Source: Aulosira sp. ZfuVER01
Lineage (GTDB): Bacteria > Cyanobacteriota > Cyanobacteriia > Cyanobacteriales > Nostocaceae
DNA: 64,000 nucleotides
Direction of reading: 5' to 3'
Assembly (NCBI GenBank): GCA_034530615.2
Contig: JAVRCV020000083.1
Coordinates: forward strand, 55,978-119,977
The notes under the pieces were generated by a model, which was given only the letters and a program-made list of their open reading frames with translations, made no database searches and had not been told where the DNA came from. Positions 50,195 to 57,277 of this stretch are shown here, in pieces. Numbering within the stretch: the stretch's first letter is position 1; every line of letters starts with the position of its first letter. Both the position numbers and the translations under genes were made by a program.

Positions 50195-50983
50195 TCAATT
50201 AATGACAGTGAAGACACTTTGAATAGCTTTGACACGTCTTCTTTGATCTAACGCTATACAAGACCAACGCCAGCGTTCTGTCATTAAAGGATACGTCTGC
50301 AAGCGACTTTGGTAATAAGTGTTATTTGGGTTGGCACAAATACCAAACAACCCTCTATAAACACCTCTTTCCAGATTTATGTTTCCTGCTGACAGTTCCC
50401 CTGATTCATCACGAAAAGCCTCTACCCGTGCCCACAAAATTGCTTCATGACCTTGCAATCCCCGGTTAAGTGCAGCGCGATAAGCAGCGGGAAAAGCATC
50501 GCTGACTCTGGGAGATGCTTGATTCCATAAATCAGTTGCGTTTACAAATGCTTCTAAATAGTGTTCGGGATTTAGCCCTACACGCTTCATTCTTTGGATT
50601 AGGCGAGGAATACGGCTTTGCGTGCGTTGTAGACATCCAGCATCAGCATTTGCCAAATTAGAACCACCTCTTCCTTGATCTGAACACCAACCTCTATTTA
50701 TCAAGCCATTACCCGGATCAATATTTTGAAAATAGTTCTGGGTTTTGCTGCCATCAATCTCACAATTTCCCTCAGCTATGCAAATAGCCAGTACCCCAAC
50801 AGAAGAATTATTGGCAAATAGAGAGTCGAGTCTTCCAGAATATGAGGCGCTAATTCCTGAGATAGACTCTACACTACTAGAGACTAATTTAATGGTCGGT
50901 GCACTAATTACAAAAGCACTAACAATGGTTAACAATAGGGTGCTGAGTAAATCCCAGACAATCCCTAACAACGAACGGTTCAT
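50195..50983 (-). CDS. Hypothetical exported or membrane-anchored protein, possibly lysozyme-like
   Basis: N-terminal hydrophobic helix; AICIAEGN...YFQNIDPGNG...NATDLWNQASP...DQRRRVKAI. Confidence 0.7.
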   Translation of the reverse strand: MNRSLLGIVWDLLSTLLLTIVSAFVISAPTIKLVSSSVESISGISASYSGRLDSLFANNSSVGVLAICIAEGNCEIDGSKTQNYFQNIDPGNGLINRGWCSDQGRGGSNLANADAGCLQRTQSRIPRLIQRMKRVGLNPEHYLEAFVNATDLWNQASPRVSDAFPAAYRAALNRGLQGHEAILWARVEAFRDESGELSAGNINLERGVYRGLFGICANPNNTYYQSRLQTYPLMTERWRWSCIALDQRRRVKAIQSVFTVIN

Positions 50984-51795: not shown

Positions 51796-52608
51796 CTATT
51801 TCAAATTAGCCACAGCTGATTTTGTAATGTGCTGAATTGCTTCTAAATCGGGCGATGGTGTTTCGCTATCCATTCTCAACCATAAAAGATATTCGATATT
51901 TCCAGCAGGCCCGGTAATTGGCGACCAAGTTAAACCTTGGTATTTCCAACCTAATGCTTCAGCCGCTTGTAATACATGGAAAATCGCGTCTGCTTGGTCG
52001 TTTGGGTCGCGCACCACGCCTTTTTTACCAACGCGAGATTTACCGACTTCAAACTGTGGCTTGACTAATAATACTGCTTCGCGGGGTGGTTGAGTTAGTT
52101 GCCACAAAGCAGGCAATATCTTAGTTAAGGAAATAAACGATACATCTACAACTGCTAAATCAGGTATTGAGTCAGCTTCACTATACAATTGCTGTGGTTG
52201 TAGTTGTCGCAGATTGGTGCGTTCCCGCAAAATCACCCGCGAATCATTGCGCAACCGCCAGTCAACTTGTCCATAACCGACATCAATACCATAAACTTGT
52301 TTGGCTTGAGCTTGTAGGAGGCAATCGGTAAAGCCACCTGTAGAAATCCCACCATCTATACAAATCCGCCCTTCGACAGGAATTGCAAAGATTTCCAAAG
52401 CTTTGGCAAGTTTCTCTCCACCTCTAGAAACAAAGCGCGATCGCTCTTTAATATGTATTTGAGATGTAATATCAACTTCTGTTCCAGGTTTATCAACAAC
52501 CAGCTGATTAACGCTGACTTCCCCCGCCTGGATGAGTCGCTGTGCTAAGGCGCGGGAAGAACACAAGTTTCTTTCTACTAAGAGTGTGTCGAGTCGTTGT
52601 TTAGCCAA
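51796..52608 (-). CDS. tlyA: TlyA family rRNA 2'-O-methyltransferase (S4 + FtsJ-like)
   Basis: KQRLDTLLV, FVSRGGEKL, DGGISTGGFTDCLLQ, DVSFISL, VKPQFE, SPITGPAGNIEYL. Confidence 0.93.
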   Translation of the reverse strand: MAKQRLDTLLVERNLCSSRALAQRLIQAGEVSVNQLVVDKPGTEVDITSQIHIKERSRFVSRGGEKLAKALEIFAIPVEGRICIDGGISTGGFTDCLLQAQAKQVYGIDVGYGQVDWRLRNDSRVILRERTNLRQLQPQQLYSEADSIPDLAVVDVSFISLTKILPALWQLTQPPREAVLLVKPQFEVGKSRVGKKGVVRDPNDQADAIFHVLQAAEALGWKYQGLTWSPITGPAGNIEYLLWLRMDSETPSPDLEAIQHITKSAVANLK

Positions 52609-52685
52609 TCTTTACTTCCACCAATGTTTGTGCTTCCTAACCCATTTATTCGTAATCCTGAATTTTTACCTTTTTAGAATCTTCT

Positions 52686-54869
52686 TCATTGGGTTTCTTC
52701 ATTCTCATCATAATTAAACATTAAAACAAATTTTTGTTTTGGTAAAACTAACATAGGTAGATATATAGGATGTCCATCCCATCTCTTAATTTTTTCACCT
52801 TTTTGGTAGCAAATAATTAAAGTTGGGACATCTGGAAATTTCTCTTTTGCTTCTAATGACCACCTACCCGATCCAAAGCCAAACATCCATTCAAAAGGTT
52901 CTTTTCTTGTCATATCTAATCCTTGATTATTATTTTTTTCACCTCTACGAACATTTAAACGTCCTTTTTCCATACCCTTTGATTTCATATCTTTTAACCC
53001 TTTAATAATCCGTTTATATTCCCATTTTTCTGAGGAAACATAATGACTTTTTGTATAACTAAGAATTTTAATCATAAAATCTATATCTATTTCTGCATAT
53101 AAATTATTATCTTGGTAATTCATTAAAAGTTTTTCCATCTCTTTAAAATTTTCGGAAATCTCTTCTTTTTTATAGGCTGGATTTTGAGGAAAAATTAATG
53201 ACCCTGGTACTAATACATCAATAACTGAAGGGTCTAAAACGCCAGAACGAGTTGGTTTGAGATTTCCTCCTATCCAAACGGGTTGAAGTTTTATATTATG
53301 AATATCGTCTCCAATCGCTTGGCGCATAGATTCATCCGCTTCGTGAATAGAACGAAAAGCATCTAATATATGTTCCGGTAAAAAGAGACGAGTAACATCT
53401 TTTAGATGTGAACGATAACCATACATTCGAGCGTGTTGATGAACTGTGTCCATCATTTTTTGTTTTGCATCACGCCCATAATAAGTTACCATTAAGCCTT
53501 CGATTGTCACACCTCTTCCTAACCTATTTCCTCCTATTAATATATTCATGCCAGGATTATAATTAGGCTCTTTTTCAGGATTATTAGCATTAATTATTTT
53601 AGGAATTGCACGTCTTAATTGAATTTTTAACTCGTCTATCAATTCATTAAGTGGAGGTAAATCAATAGCAGTTTTATTTAACTCTTTATAAGCTTCCTCT
53701 AACCATTTTATTGCTTTTTTGTTTTCCGTTGCCGAACTTTTACCTCTAACTGCTTGATCCAAATTAATTACAAATTGGCTAATAACCTTTTCTAGGACAC
53801 TATGTATATCTTGCTTATAACAAATATGAGCTAGAAAAGAATATTTAGCATCTTCTTCGCCAGAAGATAACATTTTGTAAGTTGAACCAAGAAAGAAGCA
53901 ACATAGTGCAAGCCTTAAACCTTCAGGGATAATCCACTGATTACCAGGATTAATTGAACCTTTCTGTTTTTTCAAGTCATCAATTTCTTCAGCATCTACA
54001 ATACAGTAATATTTACTGTTATCAACAAAAAATAACTCCCCTCCCATATAACTACCTCCAGGTTTTGGTAATGCTGCACAAAACTGCGGCTTACAAGGAT
54101 GAGAGAGCTTTTGTAATAATAAACTTTGGGGAGTAGCTGTAATTTGAATATAAATATGATTAGCTACTTCTTGACGAATCTTACCTATTTTTTCAAAAAT
54201 TGTACTATCAGATATCGTCGCTTTCCCTTGTTTAGCTTGTTTAGATTCATTTGTATTTAAACTAGCATTATCTGCTTCATCATCAAAAATCAAAGTAGGA
54301 ACATCTTTAACCTTGGCTGTTTTTAAAACCTTGAGTAAATTATCCAAATGATGAACATTTTTTGTTGAGACTAATACAATTCCTGTATCTTTTATGTATG
54401 GTACAACTTTAGTTTTTGCAAAACCTATAGGATCTTTTTTCCATGCTTCCCAATCAAAAAAAACAGGGCCTCCTTGAACTTGATTGTTAAAACGGTTAGC
54501 TGTTTGTTTTCCTAACCATGTATTATCAGAGGTTAAAACAATAAAACAACGAAAATTGTTTTCATGAGCTAATGCTAAAGTTGCAATAGTGGTGTTGGTT
54601 TTACCACTTTGCACTCGACCATAAATTAGCCCTGTTGTACCATTGGGGATAGGGTCGTTTCCTTTATAATGTTGACTCACCAAACCTGTACTATTTTTTC
54701 CTACATCACCATAACCAAAATTTTCTGAATAAACATTGACACAGTTTTGAACAATGTCAATAGCAGTCTCTTTTAGTTGATTAGCTTCTTTTTCTCCAAT
54801 TTTTTTCCCTAATCTATTAATTAATTTATCAATACAAGAACCATTAATCTTAATAAGAGTGTTTGTCAT
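52686..54869 (-). CDS. Z1-domain protein with SF2 helicase-like ATPase motifs
   Basis: Walker A GRVQSGKT, Walker B LIFDDEAD, motif III ITATP, YMGGELFF, IGGNRLGRGVTIEGL, DTVHQHARMYGYR. Confidence 0.88.
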   Translation of the reverse strand: MTNTLIKINGSCIDKLINRLGKKIGEKEANQLKETAIDIVQNCVNVYSENFGYGDVGKNSTGLVSQHYKGNDPIPNGTTGLIYGRVQSGKTNTTIATLALAHENNFRCFIVLTSDNTWLGKQTANRFNNQVQGGPVFFDWEAWKKDPIGFAKTKVVPYIKDTGIVLVSTKNVHHLDNLLKVLKTAKVKDVPTLIFDDEADNASLNTNESKQAKQGKATISDSTIFEKIGKIRQEVANHIYIQITATPQSLLLQKLSHPCKPQFCAALPKPGGSYMGGELFFVDNSKYYCIVDAEEIDDLKKQKGSINPGNQWIIPEGLRLALCCFFLGSTYKMLSSGEEDAKYSFLAHICYKQDIHSVLEKVISQFVINLDQAVRGKSSATENKKAIKWLEEAYKELNKTAIDLPPLNELIDELKIQLRRAIPKIINANNPEKEPNYNPGMNILIGGNRLGRGVTIEGLMVTYYGRDAKQKMMDTVHQHARMYGYRSHLKDVTRLFLPEHILDAFRSIHEADESMRQAIGDDIHNIKLQPVWIGGNLKPTRSGVLDPSVIDVLVPGSLIFPQNPAYKKEEISENFKEMEKLLMNYQDNNLYAEIDIDFMIKILSYTKSHYVSSEKWEYKRIIKGLKDMKSKGMEKGRLNVRRGEKNNNQGLDMTRKEPFEWMFGFGSGRWSLEAKEKFPDVPTLIICYQKGEKIKRWDGHPIYLPMLVLPKQKFVLMFNYDENEETQ

Positions 54870-54878
54870 AAATTTATA

Positions 54879-55343
54879 TTATGCTGATAAAACTACACTT
54901 GGCCAATTATTTTGGGGTATTGTATACTCTAAAGGAACTCGTCCTGTACCTTTAACATAATAACTACCTCTTAACTCTCTTTTTACAGAAATACGTTGTT
55001 TAGCCAAACCTTCACTAGAATTAATAATTGTCCATAATTGTTCTTCCGATAGACAGCAAATACCATCTCGATGGCAAATCAATGCTATAAACATTTGGAC
55101 ATCAGGATAACTGTTGTGGAATTCTTCTACTGCTATTTCTTCTTGTGCACTGAAGCTAAATGACCAAGAAGAATTTGGTTTTCTGGATATTTTGAATAAG
55201 ATAGCAGATTCTTTATTTATATTTTTTATAAAATAAAGAGATGGATGAATAGAAGATAAATAACTTATAGATATATAAGATGTTCCTTTAAGGAGCCGAA
55301 GAAAAGCTGCGCCATGCAAAAATTCTAGATCGTTAATACTCAT
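54879..55343 (-). CDS. Hypothetical protein, possibly restriction-endonuclease-like fold; operonic with the Z1 gene
   Basis: 154 aa; EFLHGAAF...ILFKISRKP..SWSFSFS..E...FIALIC..DGICCL; stop lies 9 nt before the Z1 start. Confidence 0.75.
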   Translation of the reverse strand: MSINDLEFLHGAAFLRLLKGTSYISISYLSSIHPSLYFIKNINKESAILFKISRKPNSSWSFSFSAQEEIAVEEFHNSYPDVQMFIALICHRDGICCLSEEQLWTIINSSEGLAKQRISVKRELRGSYYVKGTGRVPLEYTIPQNNWPSVVLSA

Positions 55344-55716
55344 GAAACTATTAGCAAGTAGAAATTAAATATTATGTTATATATTTTACAATAAAATTTT
55401 AAGTATGCTTTTAGAAGCTAAGATATTCGCTTGTTTATTTGTATTCAAAAAAGTAACCATACTCTGCTAATGAAGCTAGAGCGCGATGTATTGAGTTTTT
55501 TTGTCTGGAATGGACTAGTACAGCTTGGCACAAAGAATACCAAGTTGCAAAAGTTAGTCTTGCTTGGAAACAAGATCTTTCTTGGAGAGACTACCGAGAA
55601 ATAATATGCTCAAAGATAACTTTGGTATGAGCAAACTCTGGAAACCAGATAAAAAATTTAGCTCTGTGAGTAGAAATGTAAATATAATTACAAAAGTTCA
55701 TATATAGGAACAGAAC

Positions 55717-56196
55717 ATGGCTAAAACAACTTCTTTTGCGATTCTTGCACCTGTTCCGGAGATGCACTTGCTGTCTGCATTAGAGACAATAGACAAACTA
55801 GAAAGCGAATTAAGCGATGAAACTATCAAAGTCGCTTTTGGTAGCATGGCGTTTGAAGTATTCCGCAAAGCCGATGAATTACGTGGAGATAAAGAAGTAG
55901 AAGTATTAATTTATGCTTCTGACTGTATAGATCAACCATTAAACTCGGAAGCCTCTTGGCAGGCTTTATATATTGGCCATGCAAATTCTCGTAATGGAAG
56001 ATATCCGGGTAAATCTAAGTTTCGCCCGTCATCTACGGCAACTGATAAACCTACTTGGGCAGTTTTTTGGGAAGTACAACAGTTAAAACGGCTGAAAACA
56101 CCAATTGCCATAGCTACTCTCAAAGCTTTGGGTAAAAAGACCAACTATGCTTCTCGATTCACCCCTGAAGGCCCGTTGCTCATCGAATATTACTAA
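55717..56196 (+). CDS. Hypothetical protein, possibly PUA/ASCH-like fold
   Basis: 159 aa; AGGA RBS; AILAPVPEMHL...VAFGS...VLIYAS...FWEVQQLKRLKTPIAIATL. Confidence 0.75.
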   Translation: MAKTTSFAILAPVPEMHLLSALETIDKLESELSDETIKVAFGSMAFEVFRKADELRGDKEVEVLIYASDCIDQPLNSEASWQALYIGHANSRNGRYPGKSKFRPSSTATDKPTWAVFWEVQQLKRLKTPIAIATLKALGKKTNYASRFTPEGPLLIEYY

Positions 56197-56549
56197 TTTT
56201 TTTACTGATTTTGACTATGAACTTTTGAGGAAAATTTGTAACGTCAGTACCCTCAAAAGTCAAACAATTGTGGATTTTAGATTGATTCAGAGATAAATCT
56301 GCTTGCTCTGTACCATCAAGGAATTATTGGTAATGTTCAAGATTATTTAATTTTTAGCATAATTGCTCATTGGCACAAGCAATATTATTTTAATGTTTAA
56401 ACTCAAGCTTGGTAATAGTGAAGAAAAATTTCAAAAGATTGTTTATTTCGCACTTCTCTGTTTATTAAAAAAAGCGATCGCTTTTCCTAAGATTTTTTAG
56501 CGATCGCCGTTGATATTTTTCAGGGTAGACATTTGCCTACCCCTAATAT

Positions 56550-57059
56550 CTAGATATCTGTCTCGCTCAACTCACGAGTGATATGGTCAAATGGTTCATC
56601 TACAAAGGCTGCATTAGCTACACCTGCTGCTGCCATTTGTTCTTTGACAAGTTCTTTCATAATTTGAACACCACGAACTGTTGGGCCAATAGGAACTCCT
56701 AAAGAATTGTAAGTTTCTCGTAGCCCTTGCAGCACTCGCTCATCCAAGACATTGGTATTACCCGCAACCAGCGCGTATGTAGCATAGCGCAAGTAGTAAT
56801 CCATATCCCGCAAACAAGCTGCATAACGACGAGTTGTATAAGCATTGCCACCAGGGCGAATCAACTCTGGCAGTTCTTCAAATAATTTAATACCAGCCTG
56901 CTTGACAATTGCAGCAGCATTGGAATTGATTGTTGCCGCAGCTTGGACTCGTGCGGTACCACTTTCAAAGTAGGATTTTAAGCTGTCGAGTGCATTCCGG
57001 TCAAAATACCGTCCAGCTACGTCATAATTCTTAATTAAACTTGTTACTGCATCGCGCAT
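56550..57059 (-). CDS. apcF: Allophycocyanin beta-18 subunit
   Basis: MRDAVTSLIKNYDVAGRYFDR, RPGGNAYTTRRYAACLRDMDYYLRY; 169 aa from ATG at 57059. Confidence 0.95.
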   Translation of the reverse strand: MRDAVTSLIKNYDVAGRYFDRNALDSLKSYFESGTARVQAAATINSNAAAIVKQAGIKLFEELPELIRPGGNAYTTRRYAACLRDMDYYLRYATYALVAGNTNVLDERVLQGLRETYNSLGVPIGPTVRGVQIMKELVKEQMAAAGVANAAFVDEPFDHITRELSETDI

Positions 57060-57277
57060 TCTGGTTTCTCCCAATCATTACTATCTATGGTTTGATATTT
57101 ATTTGGCTGCTTTCATCCACAGTCATTTTTTGTGCCAATTACAATATGGATTTCGGCACAAAACAATCTATCCGCTACTTAAGGATTCTATGCCAAAGTT
57201 GCCCCCTATGAGATGATATGTTTGAGTTTTGTACAGATGTTAGGGAAAGGTTAAATAACCTCAAAACTAGAAGATCT

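Follow-up and report, generated by a model that had tools for sequence, protein, structure and literature searches.

The 64,000-nucleotide (nt) stretch of the Aulosira sp. ZfuVER01 genome analyzed here (contig JAVRCV020000083.1, positions 55,978 to 119,977 of the forward strand; hereafter the window) carries a two-gene cassette between its tlyA-like and apcF-like genes, which encodes a predicted motor protein of 727 amino acids (aa) and a 154-aa partner with a predicted nuclease fold (Table 1). The small gene lies upstream of the motor gene, and the open reading frame (ORF) coordinates confirmed the spacing of 9 nt between its stop and the motor start that was given in a preliminary description of this DNA, made from the letters alone. 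When the loci of five congeners were compared with the window using blastn, the matches ran up to approximately position 52609 and resumed from approximately positions 55654–55674. The motor and small genes had a guanine–cytosine (GC) content of 0.32, within the lowest 1.2% of the 2846 ORFs of at least 300 aa in the genome.

Table 1. Features of the tlyA–apcF interval, in window coordinates
Feature	Coordinates	Strand	Basis
Putative 727-aa DEAD-Z1-C helicase-like motor, CglI H / NgoAVII N subunit family	52686..54869	-	Pfam Z1, PADLOC Helicase_II, motifs
154-aa partner, predicted PD-(D/E)XK fold, non-canonical active site, unnamed	54879..55343	-	AF2 model, fold matches, conservation
Accessory cassette, DNA missing at the empty site of congeners	52610..55650	.	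blastn of five congener loci
159-aa hypothetical protein, genus resident, neighbor outside the module	55717..56196	+	Co-occurrence, GC
tlyA-like FtsJ/S4 methyltransferase, left core flank	51796..52608	-	Pfam FtsJ + S4
apcF-like phycobiliprotein, right core flank	56550..57074	-	Pfam Phycobilisome

The putative motor was matched by the Pfam Z1 family at residues 318–540 (E 5e-54) and, over nearly its whole length, by the PADLOC Helicase_II profile (E 1.2e-93, 312 bits; residues 58–715 on profile positions 23–616 of 621). The full motif set claimed for it earlier was recovered, with GRVQSGKT at residue 84, DDEAD at 196, TATP at 244, GRGVT at 451, and QHARM at 478, together with an H/H-like H-x7-H element at residues 348–356. 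These motifs (Walker A/B, III, H/H-like, V, and VI) were kept in 49–52 of 52 intact copies. The CglI H subunit is described in PMC5861437 as a DEAD-Z1 translocase of double-stranded DNA in which Walker A is the glutamine variant, motif VI has the short QxxR form, and DDEAD and H/H motifs are present. The window protein is a predicted full-length DEAD-Z1 motor of this CglI/NgoAVII H-subunit family, carrying all of its motifs (Q-variant Walker A, DDEAD, III, H/H-like, V, and QxxR VI), and was 27–28% identical to the motors of plasmid dcm-PLD-Z1 operons, but it has approximately 75 additional N-terminal residues. A PDB sequence search with the motor returned only a RecA Walker-A match.

Mza systems comprise five genes (MzaABCDE), among them genes for a MORC-type ATPase, a methylase, and a nuclease. 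Mza had been cited as an example of operons with Z1-domain proteins, but its place as the nearest system was not supported. The window shares with it a Z1-domain superfamily 2 ATPase and a weak match to MzaC. However, this match to the MzaC equivalog reached only 90.7 bits against a cut-off of 1500, compared with the score of the CglI-type Helicase_II profile given above, and the flanks consisted of tlyA, the 159-aa gene, and apcF. Nothing nearby corresponded to the MORC ATPase, the methylase, or the larger PD-(D/E)XK protein of Mza and MORC-Z1-PD-(D/E)XK systems. CglI, NgoAVII, and BceSIV are presented in PMC5861437 and PMC4267653 as an M subunit, a PLD-B3 R subunit, and a DEAD-Z1-C H/N subunit. 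In the window, the 154-aa PD-(D/E)XK-fold gene occupies the R position in place of a PLD-B3 subunit, and no linked C5 methylase was found. As judged from these comparisons, the pair probably resembles CglI in its working while departing from it in both the R subunit and the methylase, and it does not appear to be an Mza system.

No family in Pfam, PADLOC, or NCBIfam names the 154-aa protein. Its AlphaFold 2 (AF2) model had a pLDDT of 90.9 and was matched best by the Hjc structure 2wcw (Z 10.4, root-mean-square deviation 2.7, 117 residues), with RecU-like proteins also among the best matches and I-Ssp6803I at Z 8.7; Foldseek gave a probability of 0.99 at E 0.01. An independent model built from distant relatives agreed, with Hjc again best at Z 9.7 (the Hjc alignments of the two models span 114–117 residues). 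The small nuclease-like partner proposed earlier is supported by both models, which predict a PD-(D/E)XK, restriction-endonuclease-like fold. While Hjc resolvases and I-Ssp6803I are the closest solved folds (Z 8–10), they are only 9–15% identical to the small protein, which differs from them in its replaced catalytic acids and its obligate motor neighbor. The Atlas leads NmeDI_C, PDDEXK_14, and SopA scored 0.78 for the small protein, under the threshold, and were dropped.

A profile of the small family recovered 455 representatives at E 0.001, with intermediate relatives at 33–45% identity, such as a protein of Archangium violaceum. The canonical catalytic residues of PD-(D/E)XK enzymes are E...PD...(D/E)xK. 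Across 135 aligned family members, K51 was found in 100%, position 7 was E/D in 67%, and G11, W60, D93, G94, R122, Y128, and G132 were each conserved in more than 90%. By contrast with the canonical pattern, the expected PD-aspartate position 35 was S/G/N/A family-wide (S35 here) and the expected (D/E) of (D/E)xK, position 49, was Y/L/F (L49 here), both positions being deduced from the predicted strands and the canonical motif rather than by residue-level superposition. Since 34 methylase-linked relatives share the same atypical site, it is a trait of the family rather than the result of decay after methylase loss.

The linkage of the two genes was surveyed in both directions. With the motor as query, 44 loci were found in species-representative genomes, and the small gene lay directly upstream of the motor in 39; the remaining five comprised three loci starting at most 123 bases from a contig end, one deletion, and one fragment. 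In all 20 genomes of the order that have the small gene (this genome not counted), the motor adjoined it, and the pair was also adjacent on two cyanobacterial plasmids, which together confirmed the proposed linkage of a Z1 ATPase and a small gene as one module. The small gene was present in 21 of 301 sampled genomes of the order (7%), in 59 of 301 genomes at the family level (20%, many copies being fragments), and in two of 14 congeners, the other 12 lacking it. Among 76 cyanobacterial loci that were compiled (a few of them the same genome twice), both genes were intact in 51 and the motor was broken in 17. The pair is under purifying selection, with a median ratio of nonsynonymous to synonymous substitution (dN/dS) over 23 loci at the apcF site of 0.19 and 0.20 for the two cassette genes, compared with 0.09 for apcF and 0.07 for glnA. 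Cyanobacterial motors from different families shared 58–89% identity, none of them accompanied by a methylase, and a motif scan of the 76 loci gave a single methylase-like ORF, beyond tlyA in locus L016, in agreement with the earlier statement that the module has no DNA methyltransferase. The pair is a conserved, methylase-free accessory module.

The insertion site is a hotspot, occupied in relatives by XisH/XisI, by DUF29, or by a 14.5-kb element; the last (L184:2030-16177, genome G417) contains a phage integrase and an insertion sequence-like gene and fills the interval from tlyA to the 159-aa gene. At L019:6653-9214 (the genome also represented by L064), residues 3–116 of the small protein are fused in frame to motor residues 77–726 in an 853-aa ORF with an acidic tail, which is probably a deletion product. 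No small-family relatives were found in viral contigs (three alignments) or phage records, and plasmid searches with three distant small proteins matched only the two cyanobacterial plasmids.

Distant members of the small family occurred in a different setting. A search with an 18-sequence sub-alignment matched 216 metagenome loci, and counts were made on the 80 best. Under a strict rule, a Z1 gene immediately preceded the small gene in 65 of these; among the other 15, the motor was present with an overlapping or uncalled ORF in three and absent despite upstream DNA in three, while nine had at most approximately 300 bases upstream. Where the motor was full and 1.6 kb of DNA was available upstream, an amino-methylase (FxGxG before SPPY) was present in 25 of 28 loci (25 of 29 when L095 is added), and six distant loci also carried a MORC-type ATPase. 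These operons of a methylase, a Z1 motor of approximately 620 aa, and a small gene, some with a MORC/GHKL ATPase, share with the window the small family, its atypical site, and, apart from the three motorless loci, a Z1 motor always adjoining where DNA is available, but they differ in the gene order (motor, then small gene), in the distant motor clade, and in the amino-methylase of most informative loci. Their motors were 23–28% identical to the window motor, which was closer both to CglI-type motors (205 and 169 bits) and to a Rhizobium motor (254 bits) than to the 620-aa clade. In a tree built with FastTree only, which gave long-branch warnings, the two small-partnered motor clades were separate, suggesting that the small family serves two motor lineages.

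Several loci stood apart from this pattern. In the 1.75-Mb complete genome G700, the small gene lies head to head with a distant-clade Z1 motor of 644 aa (L168:10269-12801), with no methylase within 20 kb and no match to any of five methylase queries. In L111, L116, and L117, a motorless small-family gene adjoins a recombinase-like ORF. The plasmid pRgalR602b of Rhizobium gallicum (L067:6498-10220) encodes the best non-cyanobacterial motor among plasmid records, 31% identical over residues 3–556 including the N-terminal extension; this motor, whose place in the tree is unsure on a long branch, is flanked by Vsr and a C5 methylase but, unlike the window motor, has neither a small-family gene nor an evident nuclease gene beside it. 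The Rhizobium methylase was 25–28% identical to the C5 enzymes of the Aulosira host, no closer than to others.

Methylases elsewhere in the host were then considered as a source of self-protection. The methylase-like ORF of L016 belongs to a widespread C5 type, which in G393 and G436 is separated from the small gene by 7–10 kb but in G357 and G463 lies far away, and its proximity was read as local synteny; the two C5 enzymes of this genome are on other contigs. Host methylases were surveyed in 38 carriers, which were picked for a full-length small gene and in about half of which motor integrity was checked. The methylase family of the distant relatives was present in only four of them. Six methylases of this genome, a set that left out the 731-aa enzyme on contig C22, the 896-aa one on C8, a broken one on C28, and Type I methylases, were found in 33, 25, 27, 5, 35, and 29 of the 38. 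The Dam family was near-universal, occurring in 35 of the 38 at E 1e-50 (carriers only). Orphan GATC and CGATCG methylases are linked to HIP1 in cyanobacteria in the accounts of PMC4390886 and PMC13756078.

The C22 enzyme, the best match in this genome to the methylase of the relatives, was rejected as the methylase of the module on account of its 731 aa, long C-terminal extension, and location on another contig. Its 300-aa C-terminal extension (L152:6087-8282) is nuclease-like by eye, and an integrase-like ORF is nearby. The Dam-family gene on C28 (L189:4877-6105) contains two stops and is arranged tail to tail with a PDDEXK_11 gene. A second Dam-family gene, on C15, is intact.

The best reading of these data is that the pair may represent a methylase-free branch of an unstudied family resembling restriction systems, and, whatever its mechanism, it probably serves defense. 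According to PMC4267653, the CglI motor alone has little or no ATPase activity and becomes active through the R protein at unmethylated sites, for which a nuclease-dead R suffices. We propose by analogy that the small protein would stand in place of the R subunit and bind a short DNA target, that the target-bound protein would switch on the DEAD-Z1 motor, that the motor would translocate double-stranded DNA, and that the complex would either cut this DNA via the atypical site (E7/K51/D93, perhaps E68) or block its use. Self DNA would be protected by a mark borrowed from the host, for example, Dam-type GATC methylation inside HIP1, which is the most speculative step. We assign this full mechanism, in which a restriction-derived module relies on host methylation, a probability of roughly 35%. 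It draws on the gene pairing, the folds, the intact motor motifs, the purifying selection, and the lack of a linked methylase; the patchy presence in the family and among congeners, the frequency of broken motors, and the dN/dS values of 0.19–0.20 were counted in its favor as defense-like turnover. Also counted in its favor were the methylase-bearing operons of the distant relatives, the near-universal Dam family of the carriers with the HIP1-linked orphan methylases described in cyanobacteria, the plasmid copies, and motors in some relatives that carry a tail associated with a PemK toxin gene. A complex prediction for the motor and the small protein scored 0.00, which is evidence in neither direction.

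Several observations weigh against this proposal. The canonical acids are missing family-wide, which leaves DNA cutting unproven. Small genes with a linked methylase have motors from a distant clade as their partners, so the way they work may not apply here. Nor is the lack of a methylase in such pairs confined to the cyanobacterial clade, since four of the 29 metagenome loci and G700 show it too. None of the six surveyed host methylases tracks the cassette, and the two that were also surveyed in non-carriers were equally common there (32/36 and 30/36); the Dam-family matches were just 43–50% identical to the query. No defense genes flank the window copy, and apcF adjoins the motor or the partner in 31 of the 44 motor loci, one site being kept across many genera.

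Some of these points favor a methylase-independent defense, possible if on the unlikely side, in which the Hjc-like small protein would sense modified bases (Type IV-like) or branched or replicating structures in invading DNA and, together with the motor, process this DNA with no need for a self-mark. The absence of a linked methylase across the 76 cyanobacterial loci, the rarity of the relatives' methylase family in carriers, the independence of the cassette from host methylases, the recurrence of methylase-free pairs in unrelated hosts, and the best fold matches, namely, the junction resolvase Hjc and RecU-like proteins, are all consistent with it. However, fold likeness alone shows no function, most distant relatives retain a methylase, and the modification-dependent enzyme NhoI reached only Z 5.3–6.2 against the small protein. 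Modification dependence, considered in the preliminary description, is possible, but no modified-base reader (PUA/SRA/EVE) as in Type IV restriction was found within the module, and the relatives in which a methylase is linked suggest that unmethylated DNA is the target.

A role in DNA maintenance outside defense (branch processing, recombination, or repair), for which some Nostocales would have domesticated the motor together with a partner that binds DNA structures but is nuclease-dead, would fit the single chromosomal site of most motor loci, the purifying selection, and an Hjc-like fold without canonical acids. We consider it improbable, given that the pair occurs in such small shares of the order and family, is frequently broken, and is also carried on plasmids, where the other Z1 loci inspected adjoined a DNA methylase in five of five cases.

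It is distinctly improbable that the pair is the decaying remnant of a restriction-modification system that lost its methylase and survives only through an inactive partner. The many truncated copies, the 12 congeners without the pair, and the absent canonical acids would agree with decay, but both genes are intact in most cyanobacterial loci with motor motifs kept and dN/dS near 0.2, the motors, uniformly without a methylase, are well conserved across families, and the atypical site, being shared with methylase-linked relatives, did not follow methylase loss.

Very little speaks for the three-gene island with a PUA-like third protein that had been described between tlyA and apcF, in which the divergent 159-aa protein would read modified DNA. 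Three ORFs are indeed present there and the 159-aa gene adjoins the pair both here and in L001, yet the unit consists of two genes and the 159-aa gene is independent of them. All 14 congeners carry it, including the 12 without the pair, but it was found in only six of the 38 cassette carriers and at one of the 44 motor loci (L001). In five of five inspected pair-less congeners, it was still located between apcF and tlyA, and because these congeners keep it at the same site, it is a resident neighbor and not a member of the module. The AT-richness noted earlier holds for the motor and small genes, whereas the 159-aa gene has a GC content of 0.41, equal to the genome mean. Its PUA label traces solely to one Atlas cluster with PF24405 in 31% of members, a weak lead; the Pfam hidden Markov model search gave no support, and PF24405 had no match in this genome at E 1.

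The motor showed a further variation in other families that bears on how the system might be guarded. At five loci (L046:1791-4443, L051, L052, L053, and L054), the motor ends in an acidic tail and its gene overlaps a PemK-like toxin gene, and such tail-bearing motors of approximately 770 aa made up 18 of the 120 best homologues (P0245, P0246, and 16 others). The tail resembles the small gene found ahead of PemK/MazF toxins, and in L031 and L035 it is a separate 80-aa ORF before the PemK gene. From this position, the tail may be an antitoxin, possibly fused to the motor to guard the system; the window copy has neither the tail nor a toxin gene. A more detailed version of the proposed mechanism, in which an Hjc-fold small protein without classical nuclease chemistry loads the DEAD-Z1 motor, host HIP1/GATC methylation serves as the self-mark of a cyanobacterial branch that lost its methylase, and a sub-branch is wired to a MazF-type toxin through the antitoxin-like tail, is rather unlikely to hold in full.

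The literature searched contained no description of this pair or partner family, with thin coverage of subscription papers and supplements, and the H-subunit alignment in Figure S5 of PMC5861437 may include such proteins. The characterized DEAD-Z1 enzymes in that literature were PLD-partnered only. Knowledge of how DEAD-Z1 motors work would be extended by another widespread family of partners, one with atypical chemistry, and the two-gene, methylase-free version would offer the simplest form of the system for testing. If the borrowed self-mark were true, HIP1 methylation would gain a direct immune function. The pair could also be an unrecognized barrier to DNA transfer into Nostocales.

The earlier report of a HIP1-free stretch between 52443 and 56474 was correct (4.0 kb, from 52444 to 56474), yet it is only mildly unusual, as gaps of this length make up 161 of the 7542 in the genome and hold 10.6% of its bases. 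A promoter scan was at chance level (16 vs. 16.9). In one RNA run, a small share of the region was covered, the contigs corresponding only to tlyA, apcF, and glnA of a relative. Finally, an ORF of 262 aa without a match in Pfam, PADLOC, or NCBIfam is located at window positions 50195–50983, and it occupies the same site in L001 and the congeners.

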